From Synechococcus sp. A15-24 (GTDB lineage: Bacteria > Cyanobacteriota > Cyanobacteriia > PCC-6307 > Cyanobiaceae), in contig NZ_CP047960.1 in the NCBI RefSeq assembly GCF_014280195.1, positions 60,001 through 92,000 of the forward strand: DNA of 32,000 nucleotides, read 5' to 3'. A program made the position numbers and the translations under genes. This document shows, piece after piece, positions 9,848 to 32,000 of the stretch. Below the pieces are notes generated by a model. That model did not search any database and was not told the origin of the DNA. It saw nothing but the letters and a program-made list of their open reading frames with translations. How positions within the stretch are numbered: the stretch's first letter is position 1; every line of letters begins with the position of its first letter.

Positions 9848-9851
9848 GCTA

Positions 9852-13377: not shown

Positions 13378-13430
13378 AGACTGCACTTTCGGTCTCGAAT
13401 CGTACCCAGCTTCTGGGGTTGTATCTGCCT
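13316..13430. repeat. Direct repeat copy A: mutS start region plus upstream spacer, attached to the intact mutS
   Basis: It aligns by eye with 14686-14799. Both copies share GTGCAGnnnATGCCGCG and the upstream block CGTACC(C/T)AGCTTCTGGG (13401-13418 versus 14771-14787). The encoded peptides are [22 protein letters not shown] versus MQPMPRCSSKPLYDALQGYLFG. Confidence 0.75.
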
Positions 13431-14685: not shown

Positions 14686-14757
14686 GGCGCCCCCAAAGAG
14701 ATAGCCCTGCAGTGCGTCGTAAAGGGGTTTGGAAGAGCATCGCGGCATCGGCTGCAC
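14680..14757 (-). pseudogene. Orphan mutS 5' fragment (about the first 26 codons) upstream of the FkbM gene
   Basis: The 14545..14757 ORF begins MQPMPRCSSKPLYDALQGYLFGGAGN, paralleling the MutS N-terminus [26 protein letters not shown]. Similarity then dissolves into AT-rich sequence, and the ORF overlaps the FkbM start in another frame. Confidence 0.65.
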
Positions 14758-14799
14758 ACTCGATTTAGACCGTACCTAGCTTCTGGGTTGATATAGCCC
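14686..14799. repeat. Direct repeat copy B: mutS start region plus spacer, abutting the GNAT stop codon
   Basis: See copy A. My hand count over the first 22 codons gives about 65% nucleotide identity, so the copies are clearly diverged and not identical. Confidence 0.75.
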
Positions 14800-16201: not shown

Positions 16202-16253
16202 GGCATTGCTTGACCCAGCGATAATTGCGCTTCGTCGTTTGGTCTTGCAACTC

Positions 16254-18287
16254 ATGCCCGCCTACGACCTCACAGCTCCGTATTCCCCCAAGGGCGACCA
16301 GCCCACGGCGATCAAGCAGCTGGTGGCCGGTGTCAATGGCGGGCAGCGCTATCAGACCCTGCTGGGGGCGACGGGCACGGGCAAGACGTTCACGATGGCC
16401 AACGTTATCGCCCAGACCGGACGGCCGGCCCTGGTCTTGGCCCACAACAAAACCCTCGCGGCGCAGCTCTGCAACGAGCTGCGGGAGTTTTTCCCCGAGA
16501 ACGCCGTTGAGTACTTCATCTCCTATTACGACTACTACCAACCGGAGGCCTACGTTCCCGTCAGCGACACCTACATCGCCAAGACGGCGTCGATTAACGA
16601 GGAGATCGACATGTTGCGCCATTCAGCGACGCGCTCGCTGTTTGAACGGCGCGACGTGATCGTGGTGGCCTCGATCAGCTGCATCTACGGCCTGGGTATT
16701 CCGAGTGAATACCTCAAAGCGGCGGTGAAGTTTGAGGTAGGCGAGACCCTCAACATCCGCGGCCAGCTGCGAGAGCTGGTGAACAACCAGTACAGCCGCA
16801 ACGACACCGAGATTGCCCGGGGCCGCTTCCGCATGAAGGGGGACGTGCTGGAGATCGGCCCCGCCTATGAAGACCGGCTGGTGCGGATCGAGTTGTTCGG
16901 CGATGAGGTGGAGGCGATCCGCTACGTGGACCCCACCACTGGCGAGATCCTCCAGAGCCTGGAGGCGGTGAACATCTACCCGGCCAAGCACTTCGTGACG
17001 CCGAAAGACCGGCTGGATACGGCGATCAGTGCCATCCGCTCGGAGCTGCGGGAGCGGCTGGATCTGCTCAACGGCGAGGGCAAGTTGCTGGAGGCTCAGC
17101 GGCTGGAACAGCGCACCAAGTACGACCTGGAGATGCTGGGGCAGGTGGGCTATTGCAACGGGGTGGAGAACTACGCCCGCCATCTTGCTGGCCGCGAGGA
17201 GGGCACGCCGCCTGAGTGCCTGATCGATTACTTCCCCGATGATTGGCTGCTGATCGTGGACGAGAGCCACGTCACCTGCTCCCAATTGCAGGCGATGTAC
17301 AACGGCGACCAGGCTCGCAAGAAGGTGCTGATCGAGCATGGCTTTCGCCTGCCTAGTGCGGCTGACAATCGCCCCCTCAAAGGTGAAGAGTTCTGGGAAA
17401 AGGCGCGGCAAACGGTGTTTGTTTCCGCGACGCCTGGCAACTGGGAGCTAGAGGTGAGCGGCGGTGAGGTGGCGGAGCAGGTGATCCGCCCGACGGGGGT
17501 GCTTGATCCGGTGGTGGAGGTGCGGCCCACCAGCGGCCAGGTGGACGATTTGCTTGGAGAGATCCGCGATCGGGCGGCCAAGAATCAGCGGGTGCTGGTG
17601 ACCACCCTCACCAAGCGAATGGCGGAAGACCTCACCGATTACCTGGCGGAGAACGAGGTGCGGGTGCGCTATCTGCACTCGGAGATCCACTCGATCGAGC
17701 GGATCGAAATCATCCAGGACCTGCGCTTGGGAGAATACGACGTGTTGGTGGGGGTGAACCTGCTGCGGGAGGGTCTGGACTTACCGGAAGTGAGCCTGGT
17801 GGCGATCCTCGATGCCGATAAGGAAGGCTTCCTGCGGGCTGAGCGGTCGTTGATCCAGACCATCGGCCGGGCGGCGCGGCATGTGGAAGGGGTGGCGCTT
17901 CTGTATGCCGACAACATGACCGACTCCATGGCGAAGGCCATCTCAGAAACCGAACGACGTCGGGCGATTCAGCAGGCCCACAACAAGAAGAATGGAATTG
18001 TGCCTACTGCTGCGGGCAAGAAGGCCAGCAACTCGATCCTCAGCTTCCTGGAGCTGAGTCGCAAGCTGAAGCAGGAAGGGCCCGAAGCGGATCTTGTTCA
18101 GGTGGTGGGCAAAGCGGCCAAGGCTCTGGAAGATGATCCCGACGCCAGCCTGGCCCTGGAAGCACTGCCAGAGTTGATCGATCAGCTAGAGGCAAAGATG
18201 AAGGAGGCCGCCAAGAAGCTGGACTTCGAAGAGGCAGCGAACCTGCGGGATCGGGTTAAGCAGCTGCGTCAGAAAATGGCTGGATAG
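16254..18287 (+). CDS. uvrB: Excinuclease ABC subunit B
   Basis: [23 protein letters not shown], Walker [10 protein letters not shown], helicase motifs and the C-terminal UVR domain ([15 protein letters not shown]). ATG at 16254, TAG at 18285-18287. Confidence 0.95.
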
Positions 18288-18324
18288 CAATAGCATCATC
18301 ATAATTTGCCAATTCGTAGTACTT

Positions 18325-18347
18325 AATGGCTGAACTATTGAGCCATT
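18325..18347. terminator. 7-bp hairpin (AATGGCT / AGCCATT) between convergent uvrB and the GT10 gene
   Basis: Read directly: aatggct-gaactattg-agccatt. No clear U-tract follows, so this is only a candidate bidirectional terminator. Confidence 0.25.
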
Positions 18348-18417
18348 TAACGGAATTAAGATGGTATAGTCTCTTGTGAATTATAGCTAAAAGCATATTC
18401 TAATAACTAACAGTATG

Positions 18418-19473
18418 TCAACTGTAAATTTGCAAAATACTTCTTAGCGAATCAACTATCTTAAAACATAAATTATTGATTTGATTTTTTGAGGCAATAG
18501 ATGGCGACGAATAAATATCAAAAAATTTAGATCCAAATTCTTTTATCTCGAGCATACTTTTGCGGATGTCCATAGATGACGAAACATTAAATATCAAAGG
18601 ATGATTTGCAAATGGTTCGTTTGTTAAGCACCCAAAATAAAGTGATATGCATCCAGAAATTAAGGAGTGAGGTAATTTTTCTGTAACGTAGCCAGGATGA
18701 AAAGAATTTTCAAAGCATAAGCTGTATTTATAGTTTTTCAAAAGATCAAATTTATTACCCACCGGGTTAGTATGACTACCAAATCGATCGACTTGAAATC
18801 CAAAGTCTATCAGTTGATTTAGAAAATATTCTCTAAATGGTTCAGCATTATTTCCGATAAAAGCGACGGCGTCTTTTCGTTTTGAGAAATCAACAGACTG
18901 TTCTGAATGGAAAATTTTCTTTTGCAAAGGATTTCTATCATCATAGGACTTATTGAATAAATCAATCTCAAAAAGCCAGAGGGGCATATAAATAATACGA
19001 TTGCAACTTGTAAATTGATCAAATCCAGCAGAATAATCAAAATTAAGAAAATTGGGCCTAACATTCTCACCTAGAAATAAAATTTGCGTAGCATTACTGG
19101 GAAGCACAAGATATTGACCGTAGCAAGATGAGAAATTAATATCAGTATCAGGGGATGAAGGAATAATATTAATCTGGAGATTTTTATCAATTACAGCTAA
19201 TCTTATAAAATCTAAAATTTGATTGTCGATACAATTGAAGTCTGGCCAAAACCCCTCGAATGATATATTGATGCAATCTGTCTTGCGACTTAAAATATGC
19301 TTTAACCTTGATTTTTGACGGGTCCAATACTTATTTTGGCTAGAATTGCAATACTTGTCAATATTTGATATTGCATTCCTATAGTCATGCTTAATAAGCG
19401 AATATTCATGTTTAATCGAGTGGTCTTCTAAGCCAATTTGAGAACCTGGAGAATGCCATTGTCGTTGAAACAT
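18418..19473 (-). CDS. GT10-family alpha-1,3-fucosyltransferase-like glycosyltransferase
   Basis: YKYSLCFENSFHPGYVTEKLPHSLISGCISLYFG matches the GT10 signature (FENS....YxTEK). ATG at 19473 shares one base with the upstream TAA (TAATG). The ORF track start at 19485 is a TTG. Confidence 0.75.
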   Translation of the reverse strand: MFQRQWHSPGSQIGLEDHSIKHEYSLIKHDYRNAISNIDKYCNSSQNKYWTRQKSRLKHILSRKTDCINISFEGFWPDFNCIDNQILDFIRLAVIDKNLQINIIPSSPDTDINFSSCYGQYLVLPSNATQILFLGENVRPNFLNFDYSAGFDQFTSCNRIIYMPLWLFEIDLFNKSYDDRNPLQKKIFHSEQSVDFSKRKDAVAFIGNNAEPFREYFLNQLIDFGFQVDRFGSHTNPVGNKFDLLKNYKYSLCFENSFHPGYVTEKLPHSLISGCISLYFGCLTNEPFANHPLIFNVSSSMDIRKSMLEIKEFGSKFFDIYSSPSIASKNQINNLCFKIVDSLRSILQIYS

Positions 19474-20270
19474 TAGTCCCTCCAACTTTGATAGCTTACT
19501 GTTTCACTACCGTGAAGATATAAGGTTTTTTGCATCCAATAACAAGAAATTGGCATATTTGAATATTTATATAAAATGTACTGCAACTGCCAATCAATTG
19601 GGAAGCATAGAGGTAGATATTTTTGTACAATAATCTTAGCTAATCTCTTGGAGACGACATATCCCGCATTGGTTCTTGTTCTGGGCGGTAATACTTGTAC
19701 AAAAAGTTGAGGTTGAGATGAGTTATCATTTTTACAATGCAATCCTGCTCCCCCTGCAACATCTATATAATCAGGATTTTTTGCATCAATAAATTTTTTA
19801 ACTTCATTAAAGAGCTCAAGAGTATCTGGTTGCTCAAGGATGTCATCTTCAGCAATTAAACCATGACTTTCTTTGCCCTCTGCGATGTGTAAAAGTGCAC
19901 AATAGTGCTTTAAAAGAACACTAATTTCACCCGGCGACAAAATCCTTGATAAGAGCCATTTAGGCAAATTTAAAACATCTTCGTTGGATATATTGAGGAA
20001 AAAAGTCTTTGTTTTTTTGACATAGGTGGAGGAGTTGCTTATATAGTCTCCTTGTGAATTGGCATTGTCAATTAATATTGGGGATAATTCTAGTATTCGA
20101 GACTTCCAAAGTTCACAGTTTCCCAGAGTAAGGCCATCAGAAATTATTTCAGATGAATCAAATATCCTAATAATTTGAATAGACTCAGGATGAAAATTTT
20201 TTTGGAGGAGGCCTACAGCATTCGGCAATCTAGTCTGCGTTGCAGAACAAGTAATTAAAAAGGCCTTCAT
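19473..20270 (-). CDS. GT25-family (LOS/LPS beta-glycosyltransferase-like) protein
   Basis: The N-terminus MKAFLITCSATQTRL together with LSPGEISVLLKHYCALLHIAEGKESHGLIAEDDI parallels the GT25 blocks (MK..VI.L..S..R and LS.GE.GC.LSH...W...IlEDD). Confidence 0.55.
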   Translation of the reverse strand: MKAFLITCSATQTRLPNAVGLLQKNFHPESIQIIRIFDSSEIISDGLTLGNCELWKSRILELSPILIDNANSQGDYISNSSTYVKKTKTFFLNISNEDVLNLPKWLLSRILSPGEISVLLKHYCALLHIAEGKESHGLIAEDDILEQPDTLELFNEVKKFIDAKNPDYIDVAGGAGLHCKNDNSSQPQLFVQVLPPRTRTNAGYVVSKRLAKIIVQKYLPLCFPIDWQLQYILYKYSNMPISCYWMQKTLYLHGSETVSYQSWRD

Positions 20271-20500
20271 AAAAATTTTTCTGTAATTCTAGAACAAACC
20301 TCAAGCAGCAAATGCTAATGCAACTTTTTGTACAAATTGAAGCTTGAAATAATATTCGCAGGTAAGGCATGCATAGTTTATAACTTTTAAGTAAGGCTTC
20401 AGTACGGGGTTCAGGGAGTCTAAGATAGGGTTTGATGTATCGCGTCAAGAACGAGCCAAACACAAAATGCTAAAATTAGACGTATTTTGGACGTTTCAAA

Positions 20501-21478
20501 TTGGGCATCTGTTTCTTACATAAGCACAAAACGGGCGGATCAACACTTGAGAATACATTAAAACTTGATAGTTTGGGATGTAAGTACCTAAGTGAACTAG
20601 ATCCAAAGCTTGTAGAAAAAGATCTAATTATTGAGTTAAGAAAAAAACCAATTACGATAGTAAACGCATATGCAAGATCGCTGAAGCAAAGTCTCGGAAG
20701 TTATTGGCCTGAGTATAAAGAAACTACTACATTTTTATTTACAATAAGGAATCCAATTTCATTATTTGAAAGTGATTGGCAATATCAACATCAACTTGGA
20801 ACAAGTTCAAAATTTAAGAGTACTCACTTGCCACATGATCCTATGATAAAAAAGATATTTAGTGGAAATGATTGGCAAGAAATAATGTGTGATTATCTTG
20901 AACGCGATATTTCGAATCGTATTGATATAAATTCTTATTGTGAGCTGTTGGTTGGACAAAGGGAATCCGAAGAAGATGATATTTATAATACATTCTCATT
21001 GGGGATTGCAAAAGAGACAAGTGAACATTTTTGGATGCATAGTAATAGTTTCTACAGGCCGACTTTTTCATGTGGAGCATTTAACAACCAATGGAATACA
21101 ATAAGAACTCATTTTGGAGAAGATATTTTCGACATTAAACCCTTGCAAGGACAAAAGTCTCAAGTATATTTTTTGCCAACAGAATTAATAAACATAGCAT
21201 TGCCGTTTTATTTGCTGCACGATGCTAACCTTCGTCAGTTCTTTAAAAAAATGGATTTAAATAACCCTAGTCTAGAACTAATATCTGAAGCAATCGCAAG
21301 TCTTAGAAAGAATACAACGCGAAGTGAATTTAAAAGCGATAAAACAATGAAATTAAACCCTAAGAACAGATTAAGCTACTATAAATACTCAGATAAAGAC
21401 TACAAGATTTGGACTTCGTCGATTTCAATTTTAGCATCATTATTCAATCAATCAAACCATATCTTGAAAAGTCAGTGA
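20501..21478 (+). CDS. Sulfotransferase-like protein, paralogue 1
   Basis: FLHKHKTGGSTL is a PAPS 5'-phosphosulfate-binding loop of the HIPKTGG(T/S) type. FTIRNPISLFESDW is a 3'-phosphate RNPxxRxxS-type block. It is collinear with 27725..28690. The apparent start is TTG at 20501, and an upstream ATG at 20466 is out of frame. Confidence 0.6.
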   Translation: MGICFLHKHKTGGSTLENTLKLDSLGCKYLSELDPKLVEKDLIIELRKKPITIVNAYARSLKQSLGSYWPEYKETTTFLFTIRNPISLFESDWQYQHQLGTSSKFKSTHLPHDPMIKKIFSGNDWQEIMCDYLERDISNRIDINSYCELLVGQRESEEDDIYNTFSLGIAKETSEHFWMHSNSFYRPTFSCGAFNNQWNTIRTHFGEDIFDIKPLQGQKSQVYFLPTELINIALPFYLLHDANLRQFFKKMDLNNPSLELISEAIASLRKNTTRSEFKSDKTMKLNPKNRLSYYKYSDKDYKIWTSSISILASLFNQSNHILKSQ

Positions 21479-22550
21479 GACTGTAACTTTTATCATCGAT
21501 ATATTTAACGTTAGTTCCCCATGGCTTCCCGACTTGAATTTCATCATAGGGTATTTGATGCTTATTCAGCCATTTTATGAGTTGAGGCAAAGTGTACTTG
21601 TTAATTAAACCAATATTAGATTGAAATGAACGCATATTTCTGGAAGTAAAAAGTATGATATATGAACCCATTTTATCAGCCCTTTGAAGTGCTTCACAAT
21701 GTTCTTTGATAGGAATTGCATCAGAATAATTCTTAGTTTCTGTCAATGTACAAAGGGTTTCATCGATATCAACAACCAAAGTTTCTCTTTGAAAGCCAGT
21801 TATCGAACTGTTAGCAGAGATGAGTTCGTTCATATTTATGTCAAAGGTCTTACATAAGTCATAGGGGGTCCCAAATAATTTAGGCTTTTTGGCTTGTGAA
21901 AGCTGAACAATAAAGCCTTTCTGAATCATATAATTAAGAAAAGGTGCTATGTAGCGTTCGGAAAATCCTGAATGGTCTTCGTATTCTGAAAGAAGATTCT
22001 TAAAATCTAAAACGCTAGAAAAAGCATATGTACCAATAGAGCAAAAGTTAGAGATTCGTTTTTTTTCAACTATTTCAATGATAATATTTGAATCTTCACT
22101 TGATGGCTTTGCAAAAGACCAATGATCTCCTTCACCTATAAAACATGGTACTAAAGAAGAGATTGCAGAATTAGATTGTGAGAAATCTTTAAATAAATTA
22201 CCGGCTTCAAAATAAGTGTCGCAATTATGGACAACAAACTCATTTTGAATGTCAAAAGTATTGATTGTCAATAAAGTAGTATCCAACTGCCCAGGCGTGA
22301 GGTTATCAATTTCTAGCCAATAGATCTTGGCACCATTAACAATATGCCTTAAACTTTTTTCCAAATACTTTTTTACAAAATCACGCTTTAATGTCGTTAT
22401 AAAAATTTGATCGCTGGAAGTATAATTAAAAGATTCGACACTATATTCTAACAAGGTTTTCCCTTTTGCTTTTATTAACGGTTTTGGAGGCTTTATTCCC
22501 TTATTTTTAAATCTTGATCCTTGACCAGCTGCAGTAAAGATGTAATTCAT
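21444..22550 (-). CDS. Fusion protein: sugar-phosphate nucleotidyltransferase (N-terminal) plus HAD-type phosphatase (C-terminal)
   Basis: N-terminus: MNYIFTAAGQGSRF...KPLIKAKGKTLLEY carries the GxGxR and KPL NTase signature. C-terminus: VVDIDETLCT (DxDxT), ILFTSRN, VGKPWG and YIDDKS correspond to HAD motifs I-IV. ATG at 22550 lies 4 nt after the upstream stop. Confidence 0.7.
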   Translation of the reverse strand: MNYIFTAAGQGSRFKNKGIKPPKPLIKAKGKTLLEYSVESFNYTSSDQIFITTLKRDFVKKYLEKSLRHIVNGAKIYWLEIDNLTPGQLDTTLLTINTFDIQNEFVVHNCDTYFEAGNLFKDFSQSNSAISSLVPCFIGEGDHWSFAKPSSEDSNIIIEIVEKKRISNFCSIGTYAFSSVLDFKNLLSEYEDHSGFSERYIAPFLNYMIQKGFIVQLSQAKKPKLFGTPYDLCKTFDINMNELISANSSITGFQRETLVVDIDETLCTLTETKNYSDAIPIKEHCEALQRADKMGSYIILFTSRNMRSFQSNIGLINKYTLPQLIKWLNKHQIPYDEIQVGKPWGTNVKYIDDKSYSLTDFSRYGLID

Positions 22551-22554
22551 GGTT

Positions 22555-24204
22555 TTATTGAAGTAAGTCAATATTACCACGAAGGTAGTAAGTGCTTCCT
22601 ATTAGAGCAAAAGCTAAGCATCGAAGTTCATTCTCAGCATGCAAAGGAATCATGCTAAAGAATAGACTGGAAGTGATGACTCTAAGATCATCATGGTTTA
22701 TTACTTTATTGATAAAAATGTTGTTAAATATACTCTGAATGATCGCATGATTTTGCGGCGAATATATTTTAATATTAATACTGCTCTCATTGATATGTAT
22801 GGAAAATAAATTGTTCACGATTGAGTCGTACAAGCATGTGACAGAATGATTAATTTTACAGATGTCGTATCGTGGGTCAATATTACTTTGATTTCTATTG
22901 TCAATCCCACTCCCTCTTGGGTCAATAATTTTTACTGCCCCAAATATGGGGTCAACAAGAATATTATTAAAGCAAAAATCTCCATGTCCTTTATATAGAT
23001 CTATCGGCTTTGAGTAACTTACAAGTTCATTGGCTAAATTATGACAGATGTCGTTTATAGAGCATGGTAATTGAACACCGTTAATGTTCAGTATTTTATG
23101 CCAAGAATTTGAAAGTATACGATATTTATTGCCTGTAAAAATATTAGACATTGATATCAATCGATTGTTGAATTTTTCATGGTATAAGTGCTTAGGACTA
23201 TCAAAAGCGACTGGTTTCTTATAAAGGAGATCAAAGGCCCTTTTAAGAGCAAGACAAATTTGTTGCCATGAAGCAGGTCCAAATTTTTTGAAGAGAAAAA
23301 TCTCTGACAATGACGGGTATGGAATATATTCTAATTCTAGATAATACTTCCCATTAGCATCATCAAGGTAGTGATTGATAAGCTGTGGATAAAATTGTCT
23401 AAGCCCCTTATCAAGCTCATTGAAATAATTAGCCTCTCTCTGCAGTTTTTCGACATTTGATGAGCATTTAATGAGTGTATTGCTAGATTTTTTATATTCT
23501 ATATTATTAAATTGACGGGATGTGAAGACGTGCTTTGATGCTGTAGTGAATGTTGATTCATGTCCAATATCAATCCACTTTGAATAAATTATCTTTGCCG
23601 CGTTATTCTTGAATAAAGATTGAGCAAGTTGGTTGATATCGTTGTATAGGCTTTTGTCAAGACCAGCCATTGCGCATAAAAGATCTTTTCTATGAGAAAC
23701 TATAATACCGGTAAATGGGTGGCTAGGTTGAGAACTTATGGGTTCATTCTTTCCAATAAATTCAATGGCTAGATTGTCTTCGATTAGGGCAGACCAATTT
23801 TCTTTTGGGATCGATTCTTCGCCATAAACTATTGAAGGAATATCTAATTCATCGAATTTATATGTTGGAATTGTGGTGATTGGATTAACAATTATAATAT
23901 CACTCGACAAGTCACGTATCGTCCTCTCTAAAGTTTCTAATGGTGCTAAAGTTATGCCTATTGACTTAATATTGACCTTGCAAAAAGCCCTGAATGAGTG
24001 AAAAGGATGTTCATCATTTACTGCTAGTATTATATTAGAAATTCCTTTTTCAATATAAAAATTAGCAATTTTTTCAACTACAAGGCTATGACCTATATTC
24101 AACATAAATATTTCTTCATTTGACGAATTCATGTATGCAGGTGGATTTTTAATGGACCCTGCACCAAGAATTACTACGCATGATTTATGGAACAATTGAT
24201 CCAC
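22555..24204 (-). CDS. Fusion protein: degenerate NTase-like N-domain plus APH/choline-kinase-fold small-molecule kinase
   Basis: C-terminal half: LYKGHGDFCFNNILVD is the HGDxxxxN catalytic loop and VKIIDPRG the metal-binding Asp. N-terminal half: VVILGAGS... plus an alternating beta/alpha pattern resembles a GT-A/NTase fold, but the GxGxR signature is absent. GTG start at 24204. Confidence 0.6.
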   Translation of the reverse strand: MDQLFHKSCVVILGAGSIKNPPAYMNSSNEEIFMLNIGHSLVVEKIANFYIEKGISNIILAVNDEHPFHSFRAFCKVNIKSIGITLAPLETLERTIRDLSSDIIIVNPITTIPTYKFDELDIPSIVYGEESIPKENWSALIEDNLAIEFIGKNEPISSQPSHPFTGIIVSHRKDLLCAMAGLDKSLYNDINQLAQSLFKNNAAKIIYSKWIDIGHESTFTTASKHVFTSRQFNNIEYKKSSNTLIKCSSNVEKLQREANYFNELDKGLRQFYPQLINHYLDDANGKYYLELEYIPYPSLSEIFLFKKFGPASWQQICLALKRAFDLLYKKPVAFDSPKHLYHEKFNNRLISMSNIFTGNKYRILSNSWHKILNINGVQLPCSINDICHNLANELVSYSKPIDLYKGHGDFCFNNILVDPIFGAVKIIDPRGSGIDNRNQSNIDPRYDICKINHSVTCLYDSIVNNLFSIHINESSINIKIYSPQNHAIIQSIFNNIFINKVINHDDLRVITSSLFFSMIPLHAENELRCLAFALIGSTYYLRGNIDLLQ

Positions 24205-24209
24205 GAGTA

Positions 24210-24686
24210 TTAAAAGAGATCAATAAAGGAATTAAAAAAATTTTCATCACCCTCTTTTAGGTAATTTGTAAATCCGCAAGATAAGAAAAGATTCTTCGAT
24301 GCAATATTCTGTTTATATCCTTTAGCCCATATTCTTGCCGGTTTTCTGATAATTCTTGTTTGAGCATAGGTCAGCAATTTCTTGCCTAGCCCTTTCTTCC
24401 TATGAGCGGAGTGGATACATACACTTGGCTCAAAATTTGAGGTATAATTATTGTCCATCTCTATATTTTTTAGCCTAAAAAATCCTACGACTGCCCTGTA
24501 TCCCTTGGAATTAAGTTCACAAATTGAATACTCACTGATTCTTTGGCTTACATACTCAAAGTGATCTTCAGGACACGGTATTTCCTTTTTTTCAAACATC
24601 AATAAGTTATCCTGAGAGTATCTTAAATTATATATATCCCAAATATCTTTTAAACTTGCGTTCCTGACTCCATATGTAGTCCCCAT
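24210..24686 (-). CDS. GNAT-family acetyltransferase
   Basis: IHSAHRKKGLGKKLLTYA is the RxxGxG/A acetyl-CoA motif, followed by the C-terminal NIASKNLFLSCGF. ATG at 24686. The stop lies 5 nt before the kinase gene start. Confidence 0.65.
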   Translation of the reverse strand: MGTTYGVRNASLKDIWDIYNLRYSQDNLLMFEKKEIPCPEDHFEYVSQRISEYSICELNSKGYRAVVGFFRLKNIEMDNNYTSNFEPSVCIHSAHRKKGLGKKLLTYAQTRIIRKPARIWAKGYKQNIASKNLFLSCGFTNYLKEGDENFFNSFIDLF

Positions 24687-24723
24687 CAAATGATAAACTC
24701 ATTACATCGACAACCTATCATAA

Positions 24724-25728
24724 ATGAAGTGGGAGAGGCAACACGGAAGATATCCTCGAGATCCTAGGCTGGGTCACCGACCAGGTCTAAGCTATATTCC
24801 GGAAAATCAGGAAGATCTATTGAGAGATCTGTATACGACGTCTGATGGCTACGTATCGCTGACATCGTCGTCTGATGCATCTGGGTTATCCAAAGGTAAA
24901 TCAATAGTTATTTTAGGTGGTTCAACTAGTATGGGATTAGGTGCATCCAGTAATGAAAATACAATAGCTGCAATTCTTCAAAATCTCATGACTATTGATG
25001 GATATGAGCATACCGTTGTAAATGCTGCGTGTGCAAGCTATTGCAGCTGGCAAGAACTTATCAGGTTCGCACTTGAAATCTCTCACTTAAAGCCTGAAAT
25101 AGTAATTTCGTGCTCCGGCTACAATGACTTTATGCACTCGTCGTTAGGAGATAAGTATAGTGGTGAATGGGTGCGTAATCATGATCGCTCAATTGAGGAT
25201 CTAGCAGATTTGATAATAAATAGAGATAAGACTAGTAATTTTAGACACTTGTTTAATTCTCTCAAACGTTTCCCCTTGATCAATGCCATTATACGAGCTT
25301 GTTATAAGATTTTTAGCAGGAAAAACTATTCTGCAAAAGATCTCGTCTATGAAAAAGATAAATGGACCTTTTCTGCGCGACCTTGGGCGTCCGACAACTA
25401 TGTACATAATATGGTGCAAATAAACTCAATCGTCAATGGTTACGGTGGAAATTTTTTCACTTTCATACAACCACACCCAAATGATAATTTAAATTCAAAC
25501 AACCATGTCGGCGAAGAGGTAAGGAATATGTATGCCAAGTATCCTGATATGAGATCAGCTGAGCATGCTTTTTTTGATCGTTTGGCCTTTTTGATCAAAA
25601 GCCATGACTTTATTCATGAGTCTCCAATATTGCCAGCAGAATGTTTCGTTGATCGTGTTCACCTCAGTGATTTAGGCCAATTCCAAATGGCTTCATTCAT
25701 ATATGCTAAAATAAGAGAGTGTATATAA
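24724..25728 (+). CDS. SGNH/GDSL-like hydrolase or O-acyl-handling enzyme
   Basis: Block I IVILGGSTSMGLG, block III CSGYNDF and block V VDRVHLSDLG (DxxH). Confidence 0.6.
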   Translation: MKWERQHGRYPRDPRLGHRPGLSYIPENQEDLLRDLYTTSDGYVSLTSSSDASGLSKGKSIVILGGSTSMGLGASSNENTIAAILQNLMTIDGYEHTVVNAACASYCSWQELIRFALEISHLKPEIVISCSGYNDFMHSSLGDKYSGEWVRNHDRSIEDLADLIINRDKTSNFRHLFNSLKRFPLINAIIRACYKIFSRKNYSAKDLVYEKDKWTFSARPWASDNYVHNMVQINSIVNGYGGNFFTFIQPHPNDNLNSNNHVGEEVRNMYAKYPDMRSAEHAFFDRLAFLIKSHDFIHESPILPAECFVDRVHLSDLGQFQMASFIYAKIRECI

Positions 25729-25911
25729 GATTTTTAATTGCGCAATCCACGACTTAAGCCTTTTCACTCTTTAAACAGCCTTCGATATGGGTGGCGATAT
25801 TTTCTCGTTTTCCAAACCGAAAAATGCTTTGCAATAGTGATGACTATTTTTTGGAATAATCGAAAATCGTCTAATTCACATCCTAATCAGTTCAACTACA
25901 CAATATATTAA

Positions 25912-27711
25912 ATGAAATCACTAGGTATATCATTTGGCTATCACGACTCCGCAGTAGCCTTAGTTGTAGATGGTGAAATAGTTAGCGCTATTCAAGAGGA
26001 AAGATTTTCGCGGATTAAAAATGATCATTCGTTCCCTTTTGGCTGTTTGACACATATATTTAACACTTATTCGGTTAATATTAATTCTATAGACAAAATT
26101 GTATATTATGAAGACCCATTCTTGAAAAATAAAAGACAGATCAAATCTCTTTTAAATACAACTGTATCTGGTCGCTTTCCTCAGGCGACAAGTGTTAAAA
26201 AAGTTGTTTCTGAATCATTAACTCTCAATTCTTTTGTATTTGATGAATTTGTTCGTTGTGGTTTTGCAAGTTCTGAGTTTGAAAAATATCACTTAAAAAA
26301 TATTTTAAGTTATTCAGAGCACCATTTATCCCATGCCGCGAGTGCATATCTTCCAAGCCCTTTTCACGAATCTGCAGTTTTATGCATGGACGGGGTCGGA
26401 GAAGATTTAACCACATCGATCTGGCTTGGATCGCAGGGTAAATTAAAACTTCTAGATAGCGTTAGTTATCCAAATTCTCTAGGGCTTTTCTATTCCACTT
26501 TTACATCATACCTGGGATTTAAAGTTAACGAGGGTGAGTATAAATTAATGGGGTTGGCTCCTTATGGTCAACCTAAATACACGCAGTTAATCCTTGAAAA
26601 TATGATCAAATTGTCTGATGATGGTAAATTCTTTTTAAACAAACGATATTTCTCTTTTGATTATTCACAGATTATGTATACGAAAGATTTCGAAGTTTTG
26701 TTTGGTTTTCCTCCTATAAACCTTAACGATCAAAAATTTAGCCAAGATCATTTTGATCTCGCCCGTTCCGTTCAGGAAGTTATCACTTTAGGCATAATGG
26801 GACTTGTTAAGAATGTGAAAAAACTAACGCAAGCCGAAAACTTGTGCTTATCAGGTGGTGTTGCTTTAAATTGTGTGGCTAACGGTAATATTCTGAAATC
26901 CAGGCTCTTCAAAAACATCTGGATTCAGCCAGCAAGTGGAGATGCAGGTTCTGCCCTTGGGGCTGCCTTACTAGGTTCAGAAGACCTGGATTACTCCAAA
27001 AAGAGTTCCTCCAAAGACCTGATGAAATCAGCTTTGCTTGGACCATCCTACTCAAATGAAGAGATTGTCCGTTTCTTAGATGAGTTTAATATTAATTTTA
27101 AGAAATTACCTGAAAGTGAGCATTTATTATATCTAGTTAACTCAATAATTGACGGCAAAGTTATTGGCTTTTTCGCTGGTCCAATGGAATTTGGCCCAAG
27201 GGCATTAGGTAGTCGATCAATAATTGCGGATCCAAGAATTAAAAATATGCAATCAATATTGAATCAAAAAATAAAATTTAGAGAAGGATTTAGGCCGTTT
27301 GCTCCTGTGTTTTTGGAGTCACATGTAAGAAATTATTTTGATAATGTCGCATGCAGCCCTTATATGCTTCTTGTTGATAAATTAAAAAGCGAGCACCTTA
27401 CAAATCAATCAGTTCTTCAAGAAGCTAAAGGCCTTGATAAGTTAAAAGTGTGCAAGTCAAATCTTCCCGCTACAACACATGTAGATTGCACTTCCCGAAT
27501 TCAGACAGTGTCTTCTGATTATGGTAATCCGCAATTTTATAGTTTGTTAAAATATTTTCATCACGTCACTGGATGTCCCGCATTGATCAATACATCTTTT
27601 AATGTTAAAGATGAACCAATTGTAATGACTCCTTTGGACGCCTATAATTGCTTTATGAAAACTGGCATGGACATACTTGTGCTTGATAACTTTGTTATTG
27701 AAAAATCTTAA
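25912..27711 (+). CDS. NodU/CmcH-family O-carbamoyltransferase
   Basis: LGISFGYHDSAVALVVDGEIVSAIQEERFSRIKNDHSFP is the family's N-terminal block. Also present are LSGGVALNCVANG and the C-terminal YrdC/Kae1-like part (GPMEFGPRALGSRSIIADP, NTSFNVKDEPIV). 599 aa. Confidence 0.85.
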   Translation: MKSLGISFGYHDSAVALVVDGEIVSAIQEERFSRIKNDHSFPFGCLTHIFNTYSVNINSIDKIVYYEDPFLKNKRQIKSLLNTTVSGRFPQATSVKKVVSESLTLNSFVFDEFVRCGFASSEFEKYHLKNILSYSEHHLSHAASAYLPSPFHESAVLCMDGVGEDLTTSIWLGSQGKLKLLDSVSYPNSLGLFYSTFTSYLGFKVNEGEYKLMGLAPYGQPKYTQLILENMIKLSDDGKFFLNKRYFSFDYSQIMYTKDFEVLFGFPPINLNDQKFSQDHFDLARSVQEVITLGIMGLVKNVKKLTQAENLCLSGGVALNCVANGNILKSRLFKNIWIQPASGDAGSALGAALLGSEDLDYSKKSSSKDLMKSALLGPSYSNEEIVRFLDEFNINFKKLPESEHLLYLVNSIIDGKVIGFFAGPMEFGPRALGSRSIIADPRIKNMQSILNQKIKFREGFRPFAPVFLESHVRNYFDNVACSPYMLLVDKLKSEHLTNQSVLQEAKGLDKLKVCKSNLPATTHVDCTSRIQTVSSDYGNPQFYSLLKYFHHVTGCPALINTSFNVKDEPIVMTPLDAYNCFMKTGMDILVLDNFVIEKS

Positions 27712-27724
27712 TCCTGAACATTAG

Positions 27725-28690
27725 ATGAAGCGGCTTATTTTTTTACATATCGGCAAGACTGGGGGCGCTACTCTTGACGAAATGCTTAATAAGAAAAAGA
27801 AGAGGTTTGAGTTATCAGGGCAGATAACCCATATTGACCCACAAGAGATATGTCAAAGACTTTTTGAGTCAGAGATTATTGTTATTCATGGATTTCCCTA
27901 TAACATTAAGTCTATGATTGGAGAAAAATTATGGAATAATTTGGTGGAAGCTTCATATCGTCTATGCATTTTTCGTAATCCACTTGATAGAATAGTCAGT
28001 GAATGGAAATTTGCATATCAGAAGCAAAGCCAATTTTCACTACCCTTTATCCCCTACATAAAAAGTATGAATATAGATCAATTAACCTCACCAGTTGATT
28101 CTGGGAATTTCTTTCCTGGTTATTTCGGTCAACCTGAAACTGACCAAATCTGCTTGGATGATTGGCTAACATTTTATAGTCAAACAAGTCCTAAACATTT
28201 TAGTGAAGCAAAACAATCGCTTTTTAATGATGAGAATAAATCATTTACTTCTATTTACTACTCTTCTGCAAGTTTAAAAAACTCTGAAATGTCACTAGGG
28301 TTTAATTTATCCCGCAATATTCAATACTCTATTCTCTCTCATCACTTTGGACTTGATTTCATTTCAGAACCACGACCAAATAAAGATATCTTGCTTACCA
28401 CAGAATTAATGACTCGTTCACTTTCTTCACTGTTGACTAGGGATTCCGATTTTCGCAACTTTTTTGAGCCGATAAGATCCGATGGAAATCCAACATATAG
28501 AAATTCTATTGATTTTATACGTAAACATTCAAAGAATGTCACCAAGGTCTCCGACGATTCTCAACAACTGTTTCATGTATCACCACAAAATAAAATAAAG
28601 TTTTTTCAGGAGAATCATATTGATTATACTATATGGCAATCAACAAATATCCATCAACTCAAGTCGCTCTCTGATTTAACATTATTTTAG
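27725..28690 (+). CDS. Sulfotransferase-like protein, paralogue 2
   Basis: MKRLIFLHIGKTGGATL is the 5'-PSB loop and CIFRNPLDRIVSEW the 3'-PB block. It shares LTTELM, FRNFF and DYTIW blocks with paralogue 1 (LPTELI, LRQFF, DYKIW). The two are of similar length (321 versus 325 aa). Confidence 0.65.
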   Translation: MKRLIFLHIGKTGGATLDEMLNKKKKRFELSGQITHIDPQEICQRLFESEIIVIHGFPYNIKSMIGEKLWNNLVEASYRLCIFRNPLDRIVSEWKFAYQKQSQFSLPFIPYIKSMNIDQLTSPVDSGNFFPGYFGQPETDQICLDDWLTFYSQTSPKHFSEAKQSLFNDENKSFTSIYYSSASLKNSEMSLGFNLSRNIQYSILSHHFGLDFISEPRPNKDILLTTELMTRSLSSLLTRDSDFRNFFEPIRSDGNPTYRNSIDFIRKHSKNVTKVSDDSQQLFHVSPQNKIKFFQENHIDYTIWQSTNIHQLKSLSDLTLF

Positions 28691-28699
28691 ATTCTTCAC

Positions 28700-29815
28700 A
28701 TGTCTTTAAAGCTTCTAAATGACAGAGTCTTGAGCTTTTCTGGCTCCCCTTTTTGTCTTCCAAGGAATACTATAGAACAATATATAAGTTCAACTACCGG
28801 AGAAACATTCTGGTCTCAAACAGAGTTGTTAAATCATTTTTATTCTAGAACTCATGAACCGATTGCTTCTATTCCCCATAGATCAAAAAAATTGTTTGTG
28901 ATTATTAGCGGTCTTCATCGATCAACAGATATCTCGTTGAAGTCTTTAATCACTTCATTGTCTCCTCATCTTTTTGAATCAGTTGATATTGTTATTTCTC
29001 TTTCTGACACTAAACAAAATGAATTGTTTGAAGAGTATTGTTGTGCGCTTGTTTCTAAATCGACAATGATACGTTCAATCAAGGTTATCTATAACAACTA
29101 TTCTACATCTGAAGTTCAGGCGGATCAAAGCTTATTGTTTAACTCTGAATCATTGAGACATTCCCCCAATAGAGTTTTTCGAATGTATAAGGGTTTTTTA
29201 AATTCGTACGAATATTTACCTAATGATTTTACGGAGCAAGATTTTTTTCTCCGTACTAGGTCCGATATCCTACATTTCCCGTCATTTCTATTATCGTTGA
29301 GTCGTATTTTGTCTTCTGATCAATCATGTTTTCTTTCTACACCTCACCCCGGCAATGGTTTGCATGAGATATCTGATATAGTATTTGCATCTTCAATAAA
29401 GTACCTTAAATTATTAGTCAATCATATACCAAATGAGGATCTTGAATTTTTTAAAAAGTATTATCCATTGCAATTTAATCCTGAATGGATATTGACTAAT
29501 CAAATTTGTCAACTTTCGAAGTCCATTCTATTCAATATATATCATTCGATTTTAGCGGGCAAGGATTATTGGATATTGCGGAGTAATCTAAAACAAACTC
29601 TTGACAGCAATCTTGGTCCTTGGCTACTTTCGGCACCTATTTTCCAAGAATTGATAGCTAAAAGTTTTAAAAATCAATCTCTTTTATCAGCACTTTTGAA
29701 TATCTCACTAAGGATTGAGAATGACTATCCATACAGCGAACTTTTGTTGGTACGCATATTGACAAGCTTATGGGAGCGTAAATCAGATTCCTTTAACTTC
29801 ATACCTTCTGAATAA
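28700..29815 (+). CDS. Hypothetical protein, no recognisable motif (371 aa)
   Basis: ATG lies 9 nt after the sulfotransferase stop. Codon usage is the same AT-rich type and the frame is long and uninterrupted. I cannot place it in a family by eye. Confidence 0.6.
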   Translation: MSLKLLNDRVLSFSGSPFCLPRNTIEQYISSTTGETFWSQTELLNHFYSRTHEPIASIPHRSKKLFVIISGLHRSTDISLKSLITSLSPHLFESVDIVISLSDTKQNELFEEYCCALVSKSTMIRSIKVIYNNYSTSEVQADQSLLFNSESLRHSPNRVFRMYKGFLNSYEYLPNDFTEQDFFLRTRSDILHFPSFLLSLSRILSSDQSCFLSTPHPGNGLHEISDIVFASSIKYLKLLVNHIPNEDLEFFKKYYPLQFNPEWILTNQICQLSKSILFNIYHSILAGKDYWILRSNLKQTLDSNLGPWLLSAPIFQELIAKSFKNQSLLSALLNISLRIENDYPYSELLLVRILTSLWERKSDSFNFIPSE

Positions 29816-29837
29816 ATTAGAACGGCTTATTATCTCT

Positions 29838-31493
29838 TTAAAAGTATTCGATAATTTGACTCTTGTTAGAAAGCAATGTTGCTACCGCATTGTTACTCCA
29901 CGACTCTCTCAAAAATCTATTTTTACTGTAGATAGATAATTCATAAAGGTTGACCACGTTTTTATCTAAGTTTTTTTGTTGTAACGCTGTGTTCATCCTG
30001 TTATCGATGAGAGTATCCAATATATTCTTTATTGCGTTGAGAGTTTCCTGTTGATTATTACAGCGAATTCCTAATTTACCCTCTTCAACTAGCTTATGCC
30101 ACGACTCTGATAAAAAAACTTTGCCATCCCTCCTTGTTGTCAGTTTTATGTATTCGATTACTTTCGGTATATTAATACTTACGCTGCTCCCAAGGTTCCC
30201 TATGAAGCTTGACATTATTGTATTTAAATATATTGATGGTTTTTCTGAAAAAGTAGATGCAATATGACTCGATCCTCCTGATCCACCTATGCAAAATTCT
30301 GCAACTCTAGATAGTGATGTTTGAATTTTATCGTAGATAAGGTCATTACTTCCAAACTTACTTATATCTTCATCAATGAAATTGTTTGCTGTATTCATGT
30401 ATCTTTTTCCAAATCTTACTAAATAACAATTTTTACTTTTCAAGTATTCAAGCATCAGACTCAGATTATCTTCATTTCCATTTCTTAGGCTATTAATATT
30501 ATTGTGCATATCTTCCTTATATCCACTGTCTCGATATGAGATTGCCACAATTATCATGTCTTTTTCGATTGCCTTTAGCGTATTTGGAATATACTCTTTA
30601 AGAATATTATTTGCTTCATTATCAAGCGAGTAGTTAATTGATTTATTCCCAAACTCGATCGGTTTGGAGAGATCTATCTTTTTTTTAAAGAGTAATGTTG
30701 AGTTTTTATTTCTCAGCTCTTTTTGATATTGCAAGTAATAAGAATGTATGTTAAAGGGTATATATTCTGCCAAATCTTTAGCGAATGTCCAATCGTCATC
30801 TTTGTCTAAAGTTTTATATTGTAGATTATAGGCATCATACATTTTTTGAAGCATATATGGGAACGGTTTGAACTTACTGAATCCATATAATACAGGTTTA
30901 GCATATTCTTTGCTCTTTGGCATTTCACTCCGCAAATGAAGAATCTCCAAAAACTGTGTCATATTTGCAGGATTTAATATCATGTCTGGAGCATATATTC
31001 CTTTTGAAATAGCCCTTGTGATTTTTTCTTCGTAGTCTAGTAAATGTCTGTATCTCTTTTCATGATGTTGTGGCCATGTAAAATCACTCTTTTTAATCCA
31101 TGTGGTGTGTAGGAAGTATTTTATCTGTAAACTGTCATTTTTGCGAAAGAATATCGATTCCGTTTTTTCCTTCACTTGATCCAATTCCCAGTGCAATAGG
31201 CAAGCTGACACCGATGGGTATTCTTCAGTTAATTTTTCAATTGCATCTTTTGATATTTGGGCTCGATTAAGTGAGTAGTGTTTTTCGAATCCATGAACTA
31301 GCATCTTTATTAATTTTACGATCCACTCATGTTGTCGTTTTAGTTTGTCATCTTTTTCACTGAATTGATGTTTTCCCCAATAATATATTGAATCTTCAAC
31401 CAAGTCTCTCTTTATATCATTACACAGTGTGCACACTAACTCAAAATGAAAATACTGTGTATTTCTTTTATGTGCAGACAACATGTAGCTCAT
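29838..31493 (-). CDS. Putative GT-B glycosyltransferase, TIGR04372-like (tentative)
   Basis: IVAISYRDSGYKED...SLRNGNEDNLSLMLEYLKSKNCYLVRFGK and CIGGSGGSSHIASTFSEKPSIYLN resemble, from memory, the TIGR04372 and GT9-like blocks (hvRDsgY, RN, G.wVvR.G, G..SG..h.a..f..P). The N-terminal 300 aa are unassigned. Confidence 0.45.
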   Translation of the reverse strand: MSYMLSAHKRNTQYFHFELVCTLCNDIKRDLVEDSIYYWGKHQFSEKDDKLKRQHEWIVKLIKMLVHGFEKHYSLNRAQISKDAIEKLTEEYPSVSACLLHWELDQVKEKTESIFFRKNDSLQIKYFLHTTWIKKSDFTWPQHHEKRYRHLLDYEEKITRAISKGIYAPDMILNPANMTQFLEILHLRSEMPKSKEYAKPVLYGFSKFKPFPYMLQKMYDAYNLQYKTLDKDDDWTFAKDLAEYIPFNIHSYYLQYQKELRNKNSTLLFKKKIDLSKPIEFGNKSINYSLDNEANNILKEYIPNTLKAIEKDMIIVAISYRDSGYKEDMHNNINSLRNGNEDNLSLMLEYLKSKNCYLVRFGKRYMNTANNFIDEDISKFGSNDLIYDKIQTSLSRVAEFCIGGSGGSSHIASTFSEKPSIYLNTIMSSFIGNLGSSVSINIPKVIEYIKLTTRRDGKVFLSESWHKLVEEGKLGIRCNNQQETLNAIKNILDTLIDNRMNTALQQKNLDKNVVNLYELSIYSKNRFLRESWSNNAVATLLSNKSQIIEYF

Positions 31494-31544
31494 GGCTTTC
31501 TTCTTCTATGATAGAATTATATTAACATAAATCTCATCTGCGTT

Positions 31545-32000
31545 ATGCTTGGTGACTGCAGCTCCTATCAAAATAAAGGTTTTTTGGTTGAATTGAATGC
31601 GCTCTCTAGCCATGAGTTAGATATTATACAACGATTTATTGTACTTAATATTCAATCATTATTTAAAGAGTGTGCTGTACCGTATGAATCTCCACTTGAA
31701 TGGCCAAGTCTTATCAATCCCTCTAACCGAAAGTATTGGTTCCACAACCACATTTCTTCTAAGAGTGTACGACGATTCACGGCTGAGCAGGTTTCCAAAA
31801 TTCTTAAATTTACCATTTTTTCTAGACTTCGTGAGCTTCTCGGTGAATTTGTTGTCTCAGATGAGGAGTTAATTGGTTATCCCGATGTCTATTGGAGATT
31901 TGTACGACCTTACGAAGAAGGTGATATTGGCCCACTTCACTGCGATTCGTGGTTTTGGGATTTAAATCCTTCATGGAATCATAACTCAGACTTTAAAAAG
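31545..32000 (+). CDS. PhyH-like Fe(II)/2-oxoglutarate dioxygenase, N-terminal part (runs off the window; absent from the ORF track)
   Basis: Hand translation of the frame with codon starts divisible by 3: a TAG at 31512 is followed by ATG at 31545, and the frame is open to 32000. It reads MLGDCSSYQNKGFLVELNALSSHELDIIQRF...YPDVYWRFVRPYEEGDIGPLHCDSWFWDLNP. The WR.VRP....D..PLH.D block is the HxD iron site typical of PhyH-type enzymes. Confidence 0.55.
   Translation, partial: MLGDCSSYQNKGFLVELNALSSHELDIIQRFIVLNIQSLFKECAVPYESPLEWPSLINPSNRKYWFHNHISSKSVRRFTAEQVSKILKFTIFSRLRELLGEFVVSDEELIGYPDVYWRFVRPYEEGDIGPLHCDSWFWDLNPSWNHNSDFKK

Follow-up and report, generated by a model that had tools for sequence, protein, structure and literature searches.

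Probable left arm of a hypervariable surface-glycan island downstream of uvrB in Synechococcus sp. A15-24

Genes for glycosyltransferases and carbohydrate modification represent the main known gene classes in genomic islands of Synechococcus, and a role in the avoidance of grazers and phages was proposed for them (PMC2441476). For Synechococcus sp. A15-24, Table S5 of Doré et al. 2020 lists the island GI01_Syn_A15-24 at positions 73850-153063, comprising 74 genes, 62 of which were classified as 'gained' (PMC7522525). In this study, a stretch of 32,000 nucleotides from this clade IIIa strain (59.6% G+C; contig NZ_CP047960.1, positions 60,001 to 92,000; hereafter referred to as the window) was analyzed, following up an earlier interpretation of the same DNA that had been made without database searches (the sequence-only reading). 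The segment 18288-32000, which extends from the stop codon of uvrB to the window edge, probably represents the left arm of an approximately 79-kb hypervariable island located at the junction of uvrB, tRNA-Gly(GCC) and secA and encoding strain-specific enzymes for surface glycans. Flexible islands of this kind are thought to determine which phages and grazers attack each strain; therefore, their content bears on the coexistence of strains in the ocean.

Base composition and strain-specific content of the region downstream of uvrB

The G+C content changes abruptly at the uvrB stop codon (TAG at 18285-18287). Calculated per 50 bases, it drops from 0.62 (18201-18250) via 0.48 to 0.32 (18301-18350), and per 1 kb it remains at 0.32-0.38 up to base 32000, compared to 0.56-0.69 for most of the upstream 18 kb, where an islet at 13.4-14.8 kb is the exception. 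Overall, G+C amounts to 0.33 for the island and to approximately 0.62 upstream of it. Codon usage is likewise unlike that of the host core: G+C at third codon positions (GC3) ranges from 0.28 to 0.35 in all 12 open reading frames (ORFs) of the island versus 0.70 to 0.82 in core genes. These G+C profiles and the codon-usage comparison, both of which the sequence-only reading had called for, confirm its statement that the DNA turns AT-rich at the uvrB stop and stays so to the window edge, and its counts of G+C (39/60 at 421-480, 14/60 at 18421-18480 and 24/60 at 26401-26460) were identical upon recounting. Coding sequences occupy 95% of the segment 18288-32000 and comprise 11 complete ORFs and one ORF leaving the window, designated i1 to i12 in the following.

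Comparison with related genomes revealed that the site itself is conserved and its content is not. In strain CC9605 (96% identity in UvrB), the order mutS-GNAT-uvrB-tRNA-Gly(GCC)-secA is found entirely at host G+C, lacking islet, additional glycosyltransferase and island. In MU1617 (UvrB identity of 96%), uvrB and tRNA-Gly are followed by a low-GC block (0.34-0.41) encoding a HlyD-like protein and an ATP-binding cassette (ABC) exporter with a cyclic nucleotide (cNMP)-binding domain. The genome GCA_047286205 (94%) carries genes for GT8, Sulfotransfer_4 and GT2 proteins between uvrB and tRNA-Gly, and HlyD-like and ABC genes between tRNA-Gly and dnaB. Clade I-type strains, Cyanobium and Prochlorococcus (78-88%) feature a different, ancestral order in which uvrB is followed by ask, and no island is present; among the matches listed for UvrB, mostly from unrelated bacteria, one Cyanobium and one Prochlorococcus locus were usable. 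None of the 12 island genes was detected downstream of uvrB in the relatives examined. The presence/absence polymorphism at this site, empty in CC9605 and occupied by other cargo in MU1617 and GCA_047286205, supports the earlier view of a horizontally acquired, strain-specific low-GC island for surface glycans, and the uvrB/tRNA-Gly/secA junction emerges as a site of repeated insertion among strains of clades II/III.

Variable genes are also located on the other side of uvrB. MU1617 encodes homologues of i5 and i4 between GNAT and mutS (L081 8994-14688), together with a sulfatase-family gene, and GCA_047286205 possesses a low-GC block of NeuB, epimerase, aminotransferase and PhyH genes upstream of uvrB. 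Judged from these gene positions, the i5/i4 module appears to occupy different sub-sites of one variable region in different strains.

In CC9605 and MU1617, the tRNA-Gly(GCC) gene follows uvrB at a distance of approximately 90 bases (L083 12201-12272; L081 6014-6085), and in GCA_047286205 at one of 2.4 kb, past the three inserted glycan genes (L084 14416-14487). The window contains neither a tRNA gene nor a remnant of tRNA-Gly; the A15-24 cargo therefore separates uvrB from its tRNA-Gly. Hence, the former observation that no tRNA is visible holds within the window, but in relatives a tRNA-Gly(GCC) follows uvrB with variable cargo beside it. Within the window, no border formed by a tRNA or a mobility gene was found, and the far border lies outside.

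The published coordinates fit this picture. Subtracting 60000 from the GI01 start at 73850 yields 13850, which is exactly the start of a low-GC ORF in the window, and uvrB of CC9605 is located at a comparable genome position (78.8-80.9 kb). Based on this coordinate match and the uvrB position in CC9605, the region probably corresponds to the left 18 kb of the published island. Furthermore, the same cluster of likely orthologous genes (CLOG) occurs at positions 6 and 12 of the list of genes gained in GI01, a spacing equal to that of the sulfotransferase paralogues i3 and i9. The island itself thus appears to be catalogued already as GI01_Syn_A15-24. This predicted 79-kb island would continue for approximately 61 kb past the window, with only its left arm visible. 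Placing the left border at the uvrB stop, as had been done before, is too simple: the published island begins at window position 13850, and variable genes flank uvrB on both sides, here as well as in relatives.

The first 'gained' gene of GI01_Syn_A15-24 probably corresponds to an orphan ORF of 241 amino acids (13850..14575, minus strand; GC 0.36, GC3 0.37), to which no family was assigned, the sole match being a weak one to Methyltransf_23 (E-value of 0.03). It is the single ORF of the second low-GC islet (13387-14799, GC of approximately 0.37), which separates mutS from a conserved GNAT gene; both genes adjoin in CC9605, where the islet is missing. At the left edge of the islet, the stretch 13455-13547 shares 74% identity with the interior of the GNAT gene (14966-15060) and may have been left behind by a GNAT copy that was duplicated or displaced. 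The conserved GNAT acetyltransferase gene (14800..15255, minus strand; GC 0.69), a core gene inside the island, is 94-96% identical to its counterparts in MU1617 and CC9605. Between GNAT and uvrB, an accessory glycosyltransferase gene is located (15311..16255, minus strand; Glyco_trans_1_2, Pfam E-value of 1e-07), featuring a host-like GC of 0.62. It is missing in CC9605 and MU1617, where GNAT abuts uvrB, and may have entered this variable region at an earlier time. The core gene uvrB (16254..18287, plus strand), at whose stop the composition changes, encodes the Pfam UvrB domains and is 96% identical to the CC9605 and MU1617 genes. A lower G+C (0.56) was also recorded for 9287-10677, approximately 1.4 kb between ribH and mutS, containing two ORFs without family, namely 9302-9835 (plus strand) and 10201-10587 (minus strand), the latter with a weak, sub-threshold match to the Sp36 family. 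As ribH abuts mutS in CC9605, this stretch appears to be another small variable spot.

Gene order at the locus differs between lineages. It is tilS-DUF561-uvrB-ask-holA-cbiC-mutS-ribH-GNAT-GT-secA in Clade I-type strains, Cyanobium and Prochlorococcus, and ask-holA-cbiC-tilS-DUF561-ribH-mutS-GNAT-uvrB-tRNA-Gly-secA in A15-24, CC9605 and MU1617. An assembly artefact was rejected as explanation for the order scrambled relative to Cyanobium and Prochlorococcus, since CC9605 and MU1617 have the order of the window; the rearrangement is therefore lineage-specific, and it seems to have brought uvrB to the variable GNAT/secA junction.

Enzymes encoded by the island genes

The cargo of the visible arm is of the envelope and glycan type. 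Eight of the 12 ORFs score above curated cut-offs for families of sugar activation, transfer or decoration, one further ORF was assigned as a paralogue and one by its fold. Regarding i4, i5 and i8, the genes that were checked against other sequences, nearest homologues share 35-52% identity. Most gene calls of the sequence-only reading stood, i.e., GT10, the fusion of nucleotidyltransferase (NTase) and HAD phosphatase, the APH-fold kinase, GNAT, SGNH, the carbamoyltransferase, two sulfotransferases and TIGR04372; its GT25 call falls below threshold and its PhyH call found no match.

Sugar transfer is represented by i1 (18418..19485, minus strand), encoding an alpha-1,3/4-fucosyltransferase of family GT10. 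Its product matches FucT_N (E-value of 1.3e-12; 48.4 bits, cut-off 27.2) and Glyco_transf_10 (6.5e-09; 36.1 bits, cut-off 23.9) as well as structures of Helicobacter pylori FucT (PDB 5zoi and 2nzw, 1e-14), and the translation carries a motif of the type FxxxFENSxxxxYxTEK (FENS...YVTEK), present as YKYSLCFENSFHPGYVTEK. The motif CFENSFHPGYVTEK and both Pfam domains above gathering score place i1 in GT10. The adjacent i2 (19473..20270, minus strand) encodes a possible GT25-like glycosyltransferase with a weak, sub-threshold match to Glyco_transf_25 and no PDB sequence match. It overlaps i1 by 13 bases, and both genes are therefore probably co-transcribed. A third candidate is i11 (29838..31493, minus strand), which features a C-terminal glycosyltransferase domain of TIGR04372 (6e-13; 48.7 bits, cut-off 45) confined to residues 315-496; no Pfam or PDB match was obtained for i11, and its N-terminal 310 residues are without assignment.

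Two genes encode sulfotransferases. The product of i9 (27725..28690, plus strand) belongs to the Sulfotransfer_2 type (PF03567, 2.3e-06; 28.4 bits, cut-off 22), the match covering only profile positions 10-117 of 252, and carries the motifs KTGGAT and RNPLDRIVS. The product of i3 (20501..21478, plus strand), with the motifs KTGGST and RNP, was assigned only as a paralogue of i9 (full-length BLASTP, E-value of 1e-17) and has no Pfam match of its own. Both translations contain KTGG(A/S)T and RNPxxxxxS, the 5'-phosphosulfate-binding (5'-PSB) and 3'-phosphate-binding (3'-PB) motifs for the sulfate donor 3'-phosphoadenosine 5'-phosphosulfate (PAPS), in line with membership of both in Sulfotransfer_2.

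Further decoration enzymes are an O-carbamoyltransferase of the NodU/CmcH/TobZ family encoded by i8 (25912..27711, plus strand), a GNAT N-acetyltransferase encoded by i6 (24210..24689, minus strand; Acetyltransf_1 3.3e-08, Acetyltransf_7 3.1e-07) and an SGNH/GDSL hydrolase or acyltransferase encoded by i7 (24724..25728, plus strand; Lipase_GDSL, 23.9 bits, cut-off 23.6), which displays GGSTS and DRVH blocks. The i8 product covers the full profiles of Carbam_trans_N (Kae1-like; 3e-78, 264 bits) and Carbam_trans_C (YrdC-like; 2.8e-64, 216 bits), and its PDB relatives are NovN, GdmN and TobZ (3e-76 to 6e-54). It belongs to the family and falls short of the NodU equivalog, scoring 136 bits against a cut-off of 1000.

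The near-orphan protein encoded by i10 (28700..29815, plus strand) represents a rare family. It retrieved only itself in a word-index search of 5.8 billion proteins; 1.84 billion representative proteins included three distant relatives, at 25-30% identity, and metagenome contigs of the Joint Genome Institute (JGI) yielded none. The motifs GLxR, RxRxD and HPGN..E.SD are invariant in i10 and its relatives, which suggests that it may be an enzyme. An AlphaFold model calculated from the single sequence was discarded as unusable (predicted local distance difference test, pLDDT, of 42.6). Finally, i12 (31545..32000, plus strand) comprises the first 152 codons of an ORF that stays open to the window edge; the visible 152 residues resembled neither the PhyH family nor the PhyH genes present at related loci.

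Apart from these genes, the segment 18288-32000 contains no Wzx/Wzy, ABC exporter or initiating phosphoglycosyl transferase, and approximately 61 kb of the island lies beyond it. No membrane-spanning segment was predicted in any island protein, and no integrase or transposase domain and no other mobility family was found among them. Within the window, Rfam matches were likewise lacking, repeats resembling boundary or attachment (att) sites were restricted to short two-copy matches at chance level, and promoter and terminator scans did not exceed the expectation from shuffled sequences. The absences listed by the sequence-only reading (Wzx/Wzy, exporter, initiating transferase, integrase or transposase, tRNA, boundary repeat) hold within the window.

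From such absences it had been concluded that the genes tailor an existing glycan rather than build a polymer, i.e., form a self-contained cassette by which fucose, sulfate, carbamoyl and acyl groups are attached to a glycan whose assembly and export are left to core genes. The lack of any membrane protein, flippase, polymerase, ABC exporter or initiating transferase in 18288-32000 is in favour of this explanation, as is the fact that all matched enzymes are of activation, transfer or decoration types. However, the 13.7 kb on which it was based are part of a 79-kb island of 74 genes of which approximately 14 kb are visible, HlyD-like/ABC exporters and NeuB-type genes for nonulosonic-acid biosynthesis are found in the corresponding islands of MU1617 and GCA_047286205, and elsewhere the i5-i4 module resides within full glycan clusters including a phosphoglycosyl transferase. 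Since most of the island lies outside the window and related islands carry exporters, a claim of decoration only is not sustainable, and the explanation as a whole is considered rather unlikely.

The i5-i4 module and the proposed function of the island

The genes i5 and i4 encode enzymes of sugar activation. In the product of i4 (21444..22580, minus strand), a sugar-phosphate nucleotidyltransferase (NTase models, residues 11-255) is fused to a HAD phosphatase (TIGR01689, 1.1e-31, residues 267-373). It matches PDB 4evw and 1xpj at approximately 2e-24, and its GQGSRF and DIDET motifs are intact. The i5 product (22555..24204, minus strand) had no Pfam, NCBIfam or PDB sequence match and was assigned by means of an AlphaFold2 (AF2) model (pLDDT 90.7) and Foldseek, which relate its C-terminal domain to the aminoglycoside kinase APH(3'), glucosamine kinase and maltokinase (probability 1.00) and its N-terminal domain to RmlA-like and KdsB folds. 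The sequence HGDxCFNNIL..IDP is invariant across 46 homologues and provides the loop H383-G-D385...N390 and the metal-site residue D404; fold, catalytic HxDxxxxN loop and metal-binding Asp identify the C-terminal domain as an APH-fold small-molecule kinase. The earlier kinase call was thus borne out by model and Foldseek, and is to be extended by the N-terminal nucleotidyltransferase-like domain, in which a W-x-D-x-G-H motif is retained. The A15-24 protein deposited at NCBI for i5, a hypothetical protein with 100% identity to the ORF, comprises 525 amino acids and omits the first 24 codons counted from the GTG at 24204 (24133-24204). The longer ORF restores the conserved N-terminal 'LILAAG' strand of the family (VVILGAGS); therefore, the deposited start is probably too short.

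Homologues of i5 (approximately 550 amino acids, 29-37% identity) stem for the most part from marine metagenomes. Among 84 loci encoding an i5-type kinase, 74 feature a gene for an i4-type NTase and/or HAD phosphatase at a distance of no more than approximately 1.5 kb; the domains are fused or split in several ways, and locus G+C varies from 0.23 to 0.73. Neighbouring genes encode nucleotide-sugar dehydratases and epimerases, UDP-glucose dehydrogenase, ManC, methyltransferases, glycosyltransferases (GT1/GT2/GT4), NeuB, CMP-sugar synthetase, Capsule_synth, phosphoglycosyl transferase and PhyH proteins, and one locus has a carbamoyltransferase 48% identical to i8. A GT10 homologue was present at none of the 84 screened loci; its only other co-occurrence with the module was found in the cyanophage S-SKS1 (HQ633071 31140-44060). 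In this phage, NTase, kinase and HAD are encoded by three consecutive genes (26-40% identity to i4/i5), accompanied by a nucleotide-sugar epimerase gene and, 6 kb away, a GT10-like 'alpha-1,4 fucosyltransferase' gene, which is the only match to i1 among 50,697 phage records. The G+C of this cluster (0.28-0.40) is island-like.

It was considered whether the segment is a prophage or phage-delivered remnant, or strictly an anti-phage defence island. Besides the S-SKS1 cluster, matches of i4 and i5 to PHROG families and carbamoyltransferases encoded in 98 Synechococcus phage records point in the direction of phages. Against this, identities to the phage genes amount to only 26-40%, structural, integrase and replication genes are absent from the window, PADLOC matched no defence family, and att-like repeats or tRNA remnants were not found; the explanation is regarded as extremely improbable. 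For i8, a recent phage origin of the carbamoyltransferase was rejected, the phage homologues being only 28-34% identical.

The module recurs in hundreds of environmental contigs and a cyanophage, always within glycan clusters. Tentatively, and with less than even confidence, it is proposed that i5-i4 constitutes an uncharacterised but widespread route of three activities to nucleoside diphosphate (NDP)-sugars in surface-glycan clusters of many marine bacteria and at least one cyanophage, which in A15-24 might feed a fucosylated, sulfated and carbamoylated glycan of a type new for cyanobacteria. Knowing what the module produces would improve the annotation of many marine genomes in one step.

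Returning to the island as a whole, a sequence of events can be outlined, in which substrates, reaction order, target glycan and selective agent are those that we infer. The visible arm would contribute soluble cytoplasmic enzymes only. In a first step, i5 and i4 would generate an NDP-sugar, starting from a sugar or a sugar phosphate, either by dephosphorylation, anomeric phosphorylation and nucleotidylation, as in the AmgK/MurU/MupP system, or by kinase, phosphatase and NTase acting in this order, as in the heptose pathway. Subsequently, the GT10 fucosyltransferase, the possible GT25-like enzyme and the TIGR04372 enzyme would transfer sugars, and the glycan would be decorated: the two PAPS-type sulfotransferases would attach sulfate, the TobZ/NodU-type enzyme carbamoyl groups, and the GNAT and SGNH proteins acetyl or acyl groups. 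Decoration is presumed to act on nucleotide- or lipid-linked intermediates prior to export. Functions for export, polymerisation and initiation, if supplied by the island, would be encoded in the 61 kb beyond the window, or otherwise elsewhere in the genome. The most likely product is a surface polysaccharide specific to the strain, of O-antigen or capsule-like type, or a surface glycoconjugate, whose variability may be maintained by phage and grazer pressure.

It was also weighed whether the enzymes glycosylate or decorate a surface protein, such as an S-layer protein, pilin or giant cell-surface protein, instead of a polysaccharide. Islands of clade III strains carry the surface proteins SwmA and giant SwmB (PMC7522525), and Synechococcus islands typically contain giant ORFs (PMC2441476); moreover, the visible enzymes are all soluble. 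A15-24 lacks both swmA and swmB, though. SwmA is a glycoprotein. Neither an oligosaccharyltransferase nor a target protein is visible in the window, and the neighbours of i5-i4 in other genomes are genes of polysaccharide type. Protein glycosylation is accordingly held to be improbable.

Tailoring of a small-molecule natural product (aminoglycoside- or saxitoxin-like, bearing carbamoyl, sulfate, phosphate and acetyl groups) appears even more remote. It is suggested by the closest solved relatives of i8, which are the antibiotic-tailoring enzymes NovN, GdmN and TobZ, by the APH fold of i5 and by an SxtJ-like gene beside the carbamoyltransferase in one related locus. On the other hand, scaffold genes for a polyketide synthase (PKS), a nonribosomal peptide synthetase (NRPS) or a cyclitol synthase are not visible in the window, GT10 and TIGR04372 enzymes are present together with the possible GT25-like gene, and the conserved context of i5-i4 consists of nucleotide-sugar and glycosyltransferase genes. 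Glycosylation of a protein, tailoring of a natural product and a phage remnant are each less likely than a hypervariable surface-glycan island.

Several points nevertheless weigh against the interpretation as left arm of a surface-glycan island. No gene for GDP-fucose synthesis is visible in the window. The Glyco_transf_25 match of i2 (E-value of 0.005, 17.1 bits) stays below the cut-off of 24 and is limited to profile positions 56-140 of 199, and i10, i12 and the N-terminal half of i11 are without family assignment. The N-terminal domain of i5 lacks the GxGxR arginine conserved in active sugar-phosphate nucleotidyltransferases and may therefore be non-catalytic. In addition, the equation with GI01 is one of positions, drawing on coincident coordinates and the comparable location of uvrB in CC9605.

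Comparison with known systems

A functional parallel of the i5-i4 module is the AmgK-MurU-MupP system for salvage of N-acetylmuramic acid (MurNAc) in Pseudomonas, in which MurNAc-6-phosphate is converted to UDP-MurNAc (PMC5371407). Both comprise the same three activities and folds, namely an APH-fold anomeric sugar kinase, a sugar-1-phosphate nucleotidyltransferase and a HAD phosphatase (PMC5371407), and both would lead from a sugar phosphate to an NDP-sugar without a mutase, as proposed for i5-i4. Membership in the Pseudomonas system was rejected: i4 scores 25.7 bits against the MurU cut-off of 250, and i5 has no NCBIfam kinase match. The A15-24 genes also differ in their domain fusions and in their surface-glycan context, as opposed to cell-wall recycling, and the likeness would thus be one of fold and logic only.

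A similar logic of kinase, phosphatase and NTase is realized in the heptose pathway, which employs the kinase HldE or HddA, the HAD phosphatase GmhB and the nucleotidyltransferase HldE or HddC. Furthermore, the FKP enzyme of Bacteroides, combining GDP-fucose pyrophosphorylase and fucokinase, shows the domain order of i5, i.e., N-terminal NTase-type and C-terminal kinase, and the co-occurrence of i5-i4 with a fucosyltransferase, both here and in S-SKS1, would fit fucose salvage. The kinases of the heptose and FKP systems are of ribokinase or GHMP fold, whereas that of i5 is APH-like, and no sequence membership of i5-i4 in either system was found.

Regarding decoration, the rhizobial Nod-factor genes provide a parallel: NodU/NolO add carbamoyl, NodH/NoeE sulfate, NodZ fucose and NodL/NolL acetyl groups, all of them being cytoplasmic enzymes acting on a glycan. 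Enzymes for the transfer of these four groups are also encoded by the island. It differs in lacking visible NodABC backbone machinery, in its fucosyltransferase, which is GT10 and not GT23 as NodZ, and in its sulfotransferases of the Sulfotransfer_2 type. The adjacent and overlapping i2-i1 pair, in turn, resembles the Lewis-antigen genes of H. pylori, encoding a GT25 beta-1,4-galactosyltransferase and the GT10 enzymes FutA/FutB. The GT25 match of i2 is sub-threshold (17.1 versus 24 bits), and i1 shares the alpha-1,3/4-FucT motif and the match to FucT structures.

At the level of the whole locus, the hypervariable islands of picocyanobacteria (Dufresne et al. 2008, PMC2441476; Doré et al. 2020, PMC7522525), including the cell-surface islands of the Prochlorococcus ISL4 type, serve as reference. 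In contrast to these, the visible end of the A15-24 island shows neither an integrase gene nor a tRNA gene. A cargo consisting of GT10, two sulfotransferases, a carbamoyltransferase and a kinase/NTase/HAD module has not been described before among such islands. The sequence-only reading had regarded this enzyme mix as one that it did not recognise; it is not unprecedented in kind, carbohydrate-modification genes being a stated major class of Synechococcus islands (PMC2441476). The A15-24 region shares with the picocyanobacterial islands the atypical composition, the strain-wise presence or absence at a fixed site that adjoins a tRNA gene in relatives, the dominance of glycosyltransferase and carbohydrate-modification genes and the presumed role in escape from phages and grazers, and represents one more cargo set for this known class.

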